Virus record (IMG/VR): IMGVR_UViG_2671181056_000005
Span: 1 to 23,040 of that record
Reading direction: 5' to 3' (one strand)
Source of the DNA: a virus
Taxonomy: Duplodnaviria > Heunggongvirae > Uroviricota > Caudoviricetes
Length of the DNA: 23,040 nt
Position numbers and translations under genes: made by a program. Under the pieces are notes generated by a model that saw nothing but the letters and a program-made list of their open reading frames with translations, had not been told where the DNA came from and searched no databases. Numbering within the stretch: the stretch's first letter is position 1; every line of letters starts with the position of its first letter. This document shows positions 1,264 through 3,052 of the stretch, in pieces.

Positions 1264-1298
1264 CCCCTATCGTTATAATACGCGGTAGGGGCGTTTTT
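1264..1298 (+). terminator. Rho-independent terminator
   Basis: Stem CCCCTAT (1264-1270) / GTAGGGG (1285-1291) followed by CGTTTTTGTTT. Confidence 0.6.
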
Positions 1299-1311
1299 GT
1301 TTGGAAATGGT

Positions 1312-2991
1312 ATGAAAACTAAACTGTATTCGTATATTCGCTTCTCGTCTATGAAGCAAGCGGATGGTAGTTCTTATGAACGCCAGAAGAGAACAGCCGC
1401 AGAGATAGCCGCAAAATATGATCTTGAGCTAGTTACAAGCTATCAGGATTTTGGTGTATCTGCATTCAAAGGGGCTAACAGTAGAACAGGTGCACTATCT
1501 CGCTTTCTGGATGAGATTGGTCGATCCGTTCCGGTTGGTAGCTGGCTGGTTGTGGAAAACTTAGACCGTATCTCTCGCCAATCCATCATTGAAGCACAAG
1601 AGCTATTTCTCTCGATTATCCGTAGGGGAATAACTATCGTAACTGGCATGGATGGTAAGGTCTATAGCAAGGAATCGGTTAATGCCAATCCTATTGATTT
1701 GCTGTTGAGTGTCATGTTGTTTGCGAGAGCTAACGAGGAAAGTCAGACTAAGCGCAATCGTACTAACTCAAGCGCATTGATTAAGATTAAAGCTCATCAA
1801 GAAAATCCACAAAATCCGGCTGTTGCAATCGAGGAAATTGGAAAGAATATGTGGTGGACTGATACCACTTCCGGTTATGTGCTTCCTCATCCGGTCTTCT
1901 TCCCTATTGTTCAGGAAGTTGTGGAATTACGCAGGAATGGACGGTCAACCGCCGAGATACTGGATCACCTTAACGCGACATACACACCACCACCAGCCGC
2001 AAGTCACAAGAGGCATTCAAACTGGTCACGGGCAATGATTGAAAGGTTGTTCCATACCCGCGCTTTGATTGGTATCAAGGAAATCTCTGTAGATGGCGTT
2101 AAGTATGAGTTAAAGGATTATTATCCTCGTGTGCTAGATGACGCTGAGTTTTATCACCTTAAGAAAAGCATTGGTGTTAGAGCATGTAACTATGGAGACA
2201 AGGAAGAAGTTAAACCTATTCCCTTGCTTAGTGGTGTTGGTCTATTGAAATGTGAACATTGCGGTTCCGCTATGGTTAAGGTGAAAGGAACTAACAAACG
2301 TCCTAACCAATATCGTTATTCATGCGATGCAATGCGCTCTAGTCGTATTGCATGTGTGCATACAAACTGGAGTTTTCGAGGTGATCAATTAGAGAAAGCT
2401 GTATTGCAATTGCTGGCTGATAAAATCTGGATTGCTGAGGATAAGGCTAATCCGGTTCCGGCTTTGAAAGTACAGATTGATGAAATATCACGCAAGATTG
2501 ATAACCTGATTACCCTTTCTGCTATGACAGGAGCAACGAAGGAGCTAGCCGATCAGATTACTACCCTCAATAGCGAGCGTGAAACACTCTACAATCAAAT
2601 TAAGATGGCAGAAGAGGAAATGTATTCTGTTGACTCTCAAGGCTGGGAGAAGCTCGCAGAATTTGATTTAGAAGATGTTTACAACGAGGATCGCATTAAG
2701 GTCCGGTTTAAGATTAAGCAAGCTCTAAAACGGATCGGGTGTAGCAGGATTGACAAGTACAAAAACTTGTTTGTACTGGAATACATCGATGGCAAGACCC
2801 AGAGAGTTGTAATAGAAAATTCAAGAGGACCGAGGAAAGGCCGGATCTTCGTTGATTTGAAAACTATCAATGATAGGCAGATTCTGGAGAGTAACGGGCT
2901 TGTTCTGCATCCATGTTTAGACATGCTGACAGATAAGAACTGGAAACCAGAAGAGGAAATACCAGGTCCATTACAGGAATTTGGAATTTAA
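1312..2991 (+). CDS. Large serine recombinase (resolvase/invertase-type catalytic domain, recombinase domain, zinc ribbon, coiled coil), 559 aa
   Basis: N-terminal YSYIRFSSMKQ matches the catalytic-serine motif (compare YARVSTxxQ); ENLDRISRQ and ESQTKRNRTNSS match resolvase motifs; CEHCGS...YRYSCD...C zinc ribbon; ATG 1312 preferred over the track's TTG 1297, which lies in the terminator T-tract. Confidence 0.85.
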   Translation: MKTKLYSYIRFSSMKQADGSSYERQKRTAAEIAAKYDLELVTSYQDFGVSAFKGANSRTGALSRFLDEIGRSVPVGSWLVVENLDRISRQSIIEAQELFLSIIRRGITIVTGMDGKVYSKESVNANPIDLLLSVMLFARANEESQTKRNRTNSSALIKIKAHQENPQNPAVAIEEIGKNMWWTDTTSGYVLPHPVFFPIVQEVVELRRNGRSTAEILDHLNATYTPPPAASHKRHSNWSRAMIERLFHTRALIGIKEISVDGVKYELKDYYPRVLDDAEFYHLKKSIGVRACNYGDKEEVKPIPLLSGVGLLKCEHCGSAMVKVKGTNKRPNQYRYSCDAMRSSRIACVHTNWSFRGDQLEKAVLQLLADKIWIAEDKANPVPALKVQIDEISRKIDNLITLSAMTGATKELADQITTLNSERETLYNQIKMAEEEMYSVDSQGWEKLAEFDLEDVYNEDRIKVRFKIKQALKRIGCSRIDKYKNLFVLEYIDGKTQRVVIENSRGPRKGRIFVDLKTINDRQILESNGLVLHPCLDMLTDKNWKPEEEIPGPLQEFGI

Positions 2992-3027
2992 GCGGCCTAA
3001 ATCGACGTATAACGAGCTAAAACAGTT

Positions 3028-3052
3028 AAGGGGTACAGATGTACCCCTTTTT
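3028..3052. terminator. Bidirectional rho-independent terminator between convergent genes
   Basis: Stem GGGGTAC (3030-3036) / GTACCCC (3041-3047), loop AGAT, then TTTTT; A-rich on the other side. Confidence 0.65.

Follow-up and report, generated by a model that had tools for sequence, protein, structure and literature searches.

A large serine recombinase gene, very probably an integrase, at one end of an Escherichia coli prophage in hicB

The window analysed here is a stretch of 23,040 nucleotides (positions 1 to 23,040 of the IMG/VR virus record IMGVR_UViG_2671181056_000005), in which a piece of Escherichia coli chromosome, comprising the end of an IS4 copy, the start of ydcR and a 3′ fragment of hicB, is joined to one end of a prophage. 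The features around this junction and the recombinase gene (int) are the following, with window coordinates and strand.

1–43, no strand: end of an IS4 copy that interrupts ydcR after codon 8
44–68, minus: first 8 codons of chromosomal ydcR (the ETEC1717 alignment begins at 44; start 'cat' at 66–68)
147–260, minus: hicB 3′ fragment, about codon 101 through the stop, separated from the rest of the gene by the prophage (K-12 hicB matches up to 260)
234–286, no strand: hybrid attachment site at the int-proximal prophage junction, by comparison with the empty K-12 hicB and the far junction of ETEC1717 and L3Cip3
234–258, 259–260 and 261–286: parts of the hybrid site, namely the chromosomal half-site, TT and the phage half-site (CCCTAATATAATGCCCCCACAATAAC)
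252–260, no strand: core TTTAGGTTT, common to attB, the reconstructed attP and both junctions
267–272, plus: TATAAT, the −10 hexamer of a promoter-like site whose two halves come together only in the reconstructed attP
303–689, plus: first prophage ORF after the junction, 128 aa, of unknown function (PHROG 14908)
703–723, plus: terminator-like hairpin after ORF 303–689
1001–1246, plus: 81-aa ORF, the cargo gene immediately upstream of int
1260–1304 (stem 1260–1295), plus: intrinsic-terminator-like hairpin and T run, ending the cargo gene and preceding int
1312–2991, plus: large serine integrase gene, by Pfam, PHROG, homologue alignment, and profile and fold matches
Integrase domains, approximate residues: catalytic domain with helix E 1–165; recombinase domain 166–300; zinc ribbon 301–375; coiled coil 376–450; C-terminal beta region 451–559
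3028–3049, no strand: two-way terminator-like hairpin between int and the nuclease-like gene
3065–4249, minus: nuclease-like gene, convergent with int

The plus-strand open frame extends from 1297 to 2991, and translation from the ATG at 1312 gives a protein of 559 aa; RefSeq entries named 'recombinase family protein' are 100% identical to it, with the same start and length. The first-pass annotation had described a large serine recombinase with catalytic motifs, a zinc ribbon and a coiled coil, and this description is borne out by Pfam, invariant residues, an AlphaFold2 model and Foldseek. The Resolvase (PF00239, residues 6–153, E 7.5e-15), Recombinase (PF07508, residues 198–286, E 1.3e-7) and Zn_ribbon_recom (PF13408, residues 310–368, E 6.8e-10) matches each exceed the curated Pfam cut-offs, and the ORF matches PHROG 95 'integrase' with E 2.8e-56. 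The catalytic serine, on whose proper alignment the earlier description depended, is S12: the motif Y-I-R-F-S12-S aligns with the active-site segment of the resolvase-family structure 3GUV. The catalytic residues R10, S12, D85, R86 and R89 and the zinc cysteines 314, 317, 338 and 348 are invariant among 20 homologues with identity down to 35%. In the AlphaFold2 model (pLDDT 77.6), two long helices (382–406 and 410–438) after the zinc ribbon are predicted to form a coiled coil within the zinc-ribbon domain. Foldseek ranks full-length serine integrases highest (9dxf, 5e-15; phiC31 9rah, 7e-13; LI integrase 4kis, 7e-9), the recombinase domain has fold matches to 4kis and 4bqq, and the sequence profile of the integrase matches the phiC31 and TP901-1 integrases.

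The integrase is thus an ordinary, uncharacterised member of a well-known enzyme family. Its domain order, serine nucleophile, four-cysteine ribbon and coiled coil are those of the phiC31, Bxb1, TP901-1 and Listeria A118/LI integrases, although its identity to the solved integrases is only about 13–16% over the structural alignments and, unlike them, it has an E. coli host and an attB inside hicB or ycdX. Chromosomal copies in E. coli, Shigella and Salmonella are 66–100% identical. The closest homologues among deposited phage genomes, the YbcK type (DLP12 ybcK, phages 4A7 and Perceval) and the Burkholderia phage Bcep176 gp53/Bcep22 integrase, show 28–31% identity over 80–85% of the protein; they are far more distant than the chromosomal enterobacterial copies and are not known to have att sites in common with this prophage. 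About 100 additional C-terminal residues lie outside the alignments with the phage homologues.

On the chromosomal side, the window from 44 to 8000 matches E. coli chromosomes in which phage genes adjoin a truncated hicB and, beyond it, ydcR. RefSeq lists 'HicB, incomplete, missing N-terminus' at the matching place in ETEC1717, L3Cip3 and DEC5A. The translated window diverges from K-12 YdcR after MKKYQQLA, and the 43-mer of positions 1–43 occurs at 4931 places in 2569 E. coli genomes and adjoins insG, the IS4 transposase gene, in ER1709. An imperfect dyad in the first 40 bp, earlier put forward as a candidate recombination site, therefore falls within an IS4 end in ydcR and is discarded.

Comparison with complete genomes and with the empty K-12 site places the junction at 252–260, about 1 kb upstream of int. 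Joining both junctions restores K-12 hicB, that is attB, exactly, and the phage-side product is a reconstructed attP of 54 bp (26 + 2 + 26 nt), GTTATTGGGGTTTACAACATTTAGGT-TT-CCCTAATATAATGCCCCCACAATAAC, whose arms are partly symmetric (14–18 of 26 positions). This attP was rebuilt from ETEC1717, as the far junction of the window's own strain lies beyond the window; the ETEC1717 integrase protein is identical to that of the window and its gene 99.6% identical. All examined hicB junctions read TTTAGGT-TT-(C/G)CCTAAT and all examined ycdX junctions, at which sister prophages split ycdX in place of hicB, read GGGA-TT-CCCTAAT. The identity between attP and attB ranges from TT alone in the ycdX type up to 9–12 bp in the hicB types. 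The crossover dinucleotide is probably TT at 259–260, a position deduced from the number of T residues at the two ends of the DEC5A prophage (hicB) and of three prophages in ycdX, together with the equal 26-nt length of the attP arms. By this comparative reading, attP and attB appear to be short sites with imperfect dyad arms around a 2-bp crossover, as in the large serine integrases, which require little further identity between the two, and the putative central TT is non-palindromic, as expected for polarity. Short attP sites with imperfect dyad arms, a non-palindromic dinucleotide and an integrase gene next to the junction are likewise the pattern of phage large serine integrases.

The far end of the element is seen in the related strains. 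Between the int end and the other half of hicB, at a distance of 33.3 kb in ETEC1717 and 38.9 kb in L3Cip3, stand the terminase, portal, capsid and tail genes. The tail genes are siphovirus-like, and tail-fibre genes are present in the window. The earlier inference of a temperate lifestyle holds, the element being integrated, with a prophage–chromosome junction within the window itself, and the search of bacterial genomes for integrated copies with att junctions returned those at hicB and ycdX. The locus labelled 'phage accessory module' is, in more exact terms, the int-proximal end of a prophage. A lytic T4-like phage with an odd integrase had been suggested by a UvsW gene 72% identical to those of RB49-type phages, and was rejected on the match to E. 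coli chromosomes, the ydcR and hicB flanks and the siphovirus-like structural genes.

Both the attP–int region and the stretch just past int vary among copies, with a UvsW cassette and nuclease genes that come and go. ORF 303–689 belongs to this variable attP–int cargo, and DEC5A and the ycdX-type prophages have other ORFs in its place; ORF 1001–1246, for which neither Pfam nor PHROG gave a match and whose N-terminus (MKKIIAGVVLALGLVGAANA) looks like a signal peptide, is replaced by unrelated ORFs in L3Cip3, DEC5A and FDAARGOS_1267. A second candidate recombination site of the first-pass annotation, the dyad at 955–972, did not survive, being a palindrome in this variable cargo that is absent from the DEC5A and FDAARGOS_1267 sister prophages, which use the same attB sites. 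Variation on both sides of int could also mean that the integrase serves a smaller mobile island of int, cargo and nuclease genes beside an unrelated prophage. This is very improbable, as the matching far junction lies past the whole structural gene set, 33–39 kb off, at both hicB and ycdX, and the window has no internal att-like site between int and the phage genes. Among the early genes of the related L3Cip3 copy, Pfam names no repressor, directionality factor or replication protein, and Rfam gave no match in the window or in the non-coding far-end region of the prophage.

A different function for the ORF at 1312–2991, inversion or resolution at phage-internal sites (tail-fibre switching or multimer resolution), had been left open in the first-pass annotation. 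Its catalytic part has a weak match to PHROG 125 'DNA invertase' (2.3e-11), and the window contains tail-fibre genes. In addition, YbcK-like large serine recombinases sit in lambdoid phages, which integrate with tyrosine integrases, and the YbcK genes lie at about 39–41 kb of 49-kb lambdoid genomes. Against this, the phage half-site occurs only once in the window, no second copy of either att half-site is found there within 3 mismatches, and no long inverted repeats bracket a segment of it. The Gin, Hin and Cin invertases are proteins of about 190 aa with a C-terminal helix-turn-helix that act on inverted sites bracketing an invertible segment, whereas this enzyme has 559 aa with a recombinase domain, zinc ribbon and coiled coil. 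Further, about 1 kb separates int from the junction, and no other recombinase or integrase gene is listed in the annotation tables consulted for this prophage group. An invertase or resolvase is consequently a reading to which we give hardly any weight. Rather, the ORF very probably encodes the integrase of an E. coli prophage that is, or once was, temperate, measures about 33–39 kb and lies in hicB.

By analogy with known large serine recombinases, dimers of the integrase would contact attP and attB with their recombinase and zinc-ribbon domains, and Ser12 would cut all four strands at the central TT (window 259–260). Subunit rotation and religation would then insert the circular phage genome, in an orientation fixed by the non-palindromic TT. 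In this family attP × attB integration requires no cofactor, while excision would need a phage-encoded directionality factor. The present findings leave the current understanding of the serine integrase mechanism unchanged. What they provide, in place of the label 'recombinase family protein', is a defined system of integrase, attB in hicB, 54-bp attP and TT crossover. A prophage in hicB deprives the HicB antitoxin of its C-terminal helix-turn-helix part, and one in ycdX interrupts that phosphatase gene; such disruption may affect the host, and excision would reverse it.

This system belongs to a prophage group carried by about 1% of complete E. coli genomes, int being found in 57 of 5426 at 59 places. 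The hicB junction is present in 35 complete genomes and the ycdX junction in 25; in about 5000 others, the junction probe matches with its hicB half alone, so that this junction is missing from them. The literature search found nothing relevant on a prophage at hicB or ycdX; neither gene is mentioned in the main text of Mageeney et al. (2020), and the att and protein strings are absent from the supplement text of Durrant et al. (2022).

The two targets correspond to two integrase types that are 86–93% identical. Among seven related sequences, 27 positions separate the hicB type from the ycdX type: the recombinase domain holds 14 of them and the zinc ribbon 9, whereas the catalytic domain, although variable at 34 positions, has none. 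The hicB and ycdX attB sites have 19 of 40 arm positions in common, a value reached by only 5 of 3090 background TT sites. The two types would form a natural pair for learning how large serine integrases read their sites; as variants that go to different chromosomal loci and whose differing residues are few and listed, they could help to retarget serine integrases.

Whether int still works bears on how the locus is read, since the gene could be an intact-looking relic in a cryptic, immobile prophage, with an inactive enzyme, a missing directionality function or a domesticated role. The window's copy has an IS5 in a tail-fibre gene, and is therefore probably defective, as well as an IS4 next door; in other copies, IS1 or IS3 has inserted or large segments are deleted. 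The int match is only partial or diverged in 3 of the 57 genomes, and several of the matches that are otherwise full-length carry just the annotation 'zinc beta ribbon domain-containing protein'. A search with the attP pattern found no intact attP in IMG/VR or the JGI metagenomes, where both IMG/VR matches to the phage half-site are integrated copies. ORF 303–689 is chromosomal in all 10 contexts read (of about 540 blocks carrying it), so that no excised or circular form was seen in any of these sources. The prophage is also without a close cultured relative, the best match of its terminase among cultured phages being only 44% identical. On the other hand, 54 of the 57 genomes keep an int match covering at least 80% of the gene, the catalytic and zinc residues are all invariant, and the prophage is patchy, at about 1% of genomes, with two sites and exact junctions. 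That target site and DNA-binding domains change together speaks for recent activity in the family, not for that of the window's copy. We consider a relic unlikely, if far from negligible, and retain the integrase of a temperate or formerly temperate prophage as the preferred reading.

The expression of int is framed by hairpins. The hairpin at 1260–1295, of 14 pairs, leads into TTTGTTTGG; from hairpin and T run to the ATG at 1312 there are 14–16 nt, which agrees with the 14 nt given earlier. A hairpin stands directly upstream of int in all 7 copies examined: the RNAfold energy is −20 to −24 kcal/mol in six of them, and FDAARGOS_1267 has a hairpin of different sequence at the matching position (−14.4 kcal/mol). 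The loop of the window's hairpin holds a perfect TATAAT (1274–1279) with a weak −35 (3/6), and the combination TTACTA-N17-TATAAT reaches 9/12, which is under the scan threshold, and is not kept in FDAARGOS_1267. The consensus scan found no plus-strand promoter-like site in 1–4600. Expression of int may depend on readthrough, as first proposed; however, the same hairpin also ends the upstream cargo gene.

A possible source of such transcription is attP itself, where a near-consensus sigma-70-like promoter may span the crossover. The promoter-like site matches the consensus at 10–11 of 12 positions, with a spacing of 17–18 nt, in all 6 reconstructed attP sequences, and it overlaps the integrase-binding arms. 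Its −10 is the hexamer at 267–272, and the −35 (TTTACA) belongs to the other attP arm, at the far end of the prophage; the putative promoter would therefore be intact only in the unintegrated genome. At the integrated junctions the site is lost, with the −35 reduced to 2/6 at hicB and 3/6 at ycdX. Integrase binding to the arms that the hexamers overlap could by itself account for their conservation. On this view of regulation, int would be the last gene of a rightward unit beginning at attP, and the terminators at 703–723 and 1260–1295 might damp the transcription reaching it. Because the crossover falls between −35 and −10, integration would physically switch this cargo–int unit off, and the unit would be repressed by integrase bound at attP. 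Regulatory elements assembled or separated by integration state are known from IS911 pjunc (circular IS/ICE junction promoters) and from lambda sib retroregulation, which involve other enzymes and elements and resemble the attP promoter-like site in logic only. In the KplE1 IntS type of integrase gene, as described by Panis et al. (2010; PMC2951348), the promoter overlaps attL and works in the integrated state, with a tyrosine integrase. As in the window, promoter and recombinase-binding att DNA overlap there, which invites autoregulation, whereas the promoter-like site here would be intact only in attP and split by integration. That attP is a strong cargo–int promoter shut off by integration and, jointly, that the hicB- and ycdX-type integrases are a minimal specificity-switch pair is a tentative proposal, possible but rather doubtful as a whole.

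The bidirectional terminator that had been reported after int was recovered by the scan as the two-way hairpin at 3028–3049. Its stem is kept, with varying loops, in 5 of 6 other copies, and it is absent in DEC5A, where the downstream sequence differs. With their G+C-rich stems and T runs, this hairpin and that at 1260–1295 are terminator-like and would act as intrinsic terminators. The segment 1–4600 has 8 terminator-like sites, compared with 3.3 ± 1.9 in shuffled sequences.

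In the window, the plus-strand frame is open across 1297-2991, and the ATG at 1312, which RefSeq also uses for identical proteins, gives a 559-aa protein. Pfam Resolvase (residues 6-153, E 7.5e-15), Recombinase (198-286, 1.3e-7) and Zn_ribbon_recom (310-368, 6.8e-10) occur in that order, all above their curated cut-offs, together with a match to PHROG 95 'integrase' (2.8e-56). The N-terminal Y-I-R-F-S12-S aligns with the active-site segment of 3GUV, a structure of the resolvase family. R10, the catalytic S12, D85, R86, R89 and cysteines 314, 317, 338 and 348 are invariant across 20 aligned homologues with identities as low as 35%, and a profile built from this alignment matches the phiC31 and TP901-1 integrases. 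In an AlphaFold2 model (pLDDT 77.6), two long helices C-terminal to the zinc ribbon (382-406 and 410-438) are predicted to be the expected coiled coil, and the top Foldseek matches are full-length serine integrases (9dxf, 5e-15; phiC31 9rah, 7e-13; LI integrase 4kis, 7e-9). A terminator scan places a 14-pair hairpin and T run before the gene (1260-1295) and a two-way hairpin after it (3028-3049); terminator-like sites in 1-4600 number 8, against 3.3 +/- 1.9 in shuffles. Because the domain, residue, fold and terminator results agree, the first-pass annotation was correct in describing a serine recombinase with catalytic motifs, zinc ribbon and coiled coil, set between a hairpin and a bidirectional terminator. 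Judged from sequence, the gene has every testable sequence-level and site-level feature of a large serine integrase, with catalysis and directionality predicted. Assignment to the small invertases was rejected, as the gene does not fit that class. Phage homologues do not exceed 31% identity, and many E. coli assemblies encode an identical protein, on contigs that reach hundreds of kilobases.

A search of complete E. coli genomes aligned 44-8000 to chromosomes. The ETEC1717 copy runs from ydcR through an hicB fragment 'missing N-terminus' and three small ORFs to the recombinase, followed by lysis-like and tail genes; the 'missing C-terminus' part of hicB lies 33.3 kb off, past terminase, portal and capsid genes. 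Given the chromosomal alignment, this gene order and the split hicB, the window reads as chromosome plus one prophage end; the far junction of its own strain lies outside it. The element measures 38.9 kb in another copy, L3Cip3. Its tail genes (tape measure, distal tail protein, tail tube) are siphovirus-like, and its terminase is 44% identical to the best match among cultured phages.

Other features of the window
1-43, IS4 end, inserted after codon 8 of ydcR
3065-4249, minus strand, nuclease-like gene with CapR domain, PHROG 681 'endonuclease'
4405-4974, plus strand, paralogous nuclease-like gene with CapR domain, PHROG 681 'endonuclease'
4965-6464, UvsW, DNA ~72% identical to RB49-type T4-like phages
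6508-6771, small helicase-associated ORF, PHROG 1143
17491-17997, minus strand, T4 gp38-like adhesin, Gp38_N, 3.6e-15
18702-21914, minus strand, gp37-like long tail fibre distal subunit, PHROG 1699, 1.7e-120
21845-23040, complete IS5 (inverted repeats at 21845 and 23029-23040; transposase 21913-22893), interrupting the tail-fibre gene

With its tail-fibre gene split by IS5, this copy of the prophage is probably defective. The window begins with the IS4 end and stops exactly at the IS5 end, and has the look of an entire contig from a draft assembly that broke at repeats. UvsW had first suggested a T4-like phage, a reading overruled by the E. coli chromosomal matches.

The attachment site was reconstructed from the two junctions and the empty site.

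Junction sequences, in window orientation
Near (integrase-proximal) junction, window: ...CTCCTGTTTAGGTTT / CCCTAATATAATGCCCCCACAATAAC...
Far junction, ETEC1717 and L3Cip3: ...GTTATTGGGGTTTACAACA / TTTAGGTTTGCCAATTCGCC...
Empty K-12 hicB: ...CTCCTGTTTAGGTTTGCCAATTCGCC...

Joined, the near and far junctions restore hicB exactly, and they share the core TTTAGGTTT (252-260). Relatives with shorter identity were used to place the crossover within it. DEC5A, also at hicB, has TTT at the near and TT at the far junction, while three prophages splitting ycdX have GGGA-TT-CCC near and GGG-TT-TCC far, with the attB GGGATTTCC. Only exchange at TT fits DEC5A and these three, which would put the crossover dinucleotide at 259-260; the rule holds at every junction examined. 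Every reconstructed attP is centred on TT and has two arms of 26 nt, from GTTATT to TT (14-18/26 positions symmetric). The sites proposed earlier fall away: the dyad in the first 40 bp belongs to IS4, and that at 955-972 sits in the cargo region between attP and the integrase gene, is missing from DEC5A and FDAARGOS_1267, and is not an att site. The latter is a perfect palindrome, CGATATAAATATATCG, upstream of an 81-aa putative signal-peptide ORF that it tracks (present in ETEC1717, 2017.18.04CC and PigCaeca_2, absent where the ORF is absent), and may be an operator or promoter element of this cargo gene.

Integration into hicB (window 147-260; 38710-39036 in the comparison locus L002) cuts HicB short at ~residue 104, where five phage-derived codons follow (…GKPKCCKPQ). 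The C-terminal helix-turn-helix part is removed, the N-terminal domain and hicA stay intact, and excision would restore hicB. In sister prophages the split gene is ycdX, which encodes a phosphatase, and the break lies at about codon 132. In FDAARGOS_1267 (L009 1145-1579), the ycdX 3' fragment is annotated longer than in other copies and diverges strongly from K-12 near the junction (…ATATCGTGGA-TT vs …ATATTTGGGA-TT), possibly reflecting divergence of the host allele or a gene end replaced by phage-borne sequence.

The integrase gene was found in 57 of 5426 complete genomes, at 59 places (a match covering >=80% of the gene in 54 genomes). Junctions were recovered at hicB in 35 genomes and at ycdX in 25, together essentially all copies; in ~5000 further genomes the junction probe matches by its hicB half alone, and these therefore do not carry this junction. 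Together with the comparisons that follow, this distribution is evidence for present or recent activity and site specificity of the integrase family. The recombinase and zinc-ribbon domains are known to read att sites. Among seven integrases, a small and related sample, 27 positions separate hicB users from ycdX users: 14 in the recombinase domain, nine in the zinc ribbon, one in the coiled coil, three in the C-terminal part and none in the catalytic domain, yet 34 catalytic-domain positions vary. The hicB and ycdX attB sites match at 19/40 arm positions, a level reached by 5/3090 background TT sites. Of practical use are the att pair, now defined, and a natural set of integrase variants with two targets. 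No description of a prophage at hicB or ycdX with this integrase turned up in the literature searched, although absence there is not proof.

The integrase's domain set, catalytic residues, junction-adjacent position and att sites are established here; the steps of its action follow established knowledge of large serine recombinases. Integrase dimers would bind attP and attB, Ser12 would cut TT with a stagger, and subunit rotation and religation would leave the phage genome integrated, in an orientation set by the asymmetric TT. Excision would require a separate directionality factor; the small ORFs near the integrase gene and the early genes of L3Cip3 gave no informative family matches that would name it. 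The attP pattern had no match, as an excised form, in IMG/VR or JGI metagenomes. The phage half-site had two in IMG/VR, both integrated copies, and the 10 contexts read for ORF 303-689, on the longest contigs only, are all chromosomal.

The integrase may, as the first-pass annotation proposed, depend on readthrough of the upstream terminator for its expression. In favour, a hairpin lies directly 5' of the gene in 7/7 copies, three with a different upstream gene and one with another hairpin sequence in that position. However, it also simply terminates the upstream cargo gene, and a perfect TATAAT sits in its loop, spaced 17 nt from a weak -35, TTACTA (3/6); transcripts could start there, without the 5' half of the stem. 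The scan found no plus-strand promoter-like site in 1-4600. All six reconstructed attP sites contain TT(T/G)AC(A/T)-N17/18-TAT(A/C)AT (10-11 of 12), where the far arm supplies the -35 and window 267-272 the -10; at integrated junctions the -35 falls to 2/6 (hicB) or 3/6 (ycdX). That this is a real promoter driving a cargo-integrase unit is possible but less likely than not, because the consensus match overlaps protein-binding arms. If it is, the unintegrated genome would transcribe the unit, integration would shut it off, and integrase bound to attP would possibly repress it. In KplE1, the promoter of IntS, a tyrosine integrase, is known to overlap att DNA (PMC2951348).

The cassette at 3065-6771, comprising the nuclease-like paralogues, UvsW and the helicase-associated ORF, is missing from the ETEC1717 copy, and in FDAARGOS_1267 a UvsY fragment is present as well. 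Together with the match of UvsW to RB49-type phages, this suggests that genes have passed, perhaps driven by the nucleases, between virulent T4-like phages and this temperate prophage. The gp38-like adhesin and gp37-like fibre are embedded in the otherwise siphovirus-like tail module. At the far prophage end, outside the window, all copies examined have 1.3-1.4 kb without annotated genes (comparison locus L003, 13648-15028). In L3Cip3 short repeats occur in this stretch, among them at least eight that are TTTTTGCCCCTGAAA-like (14158-14345). It has no Rfam match and may be an origin or regulatory array.
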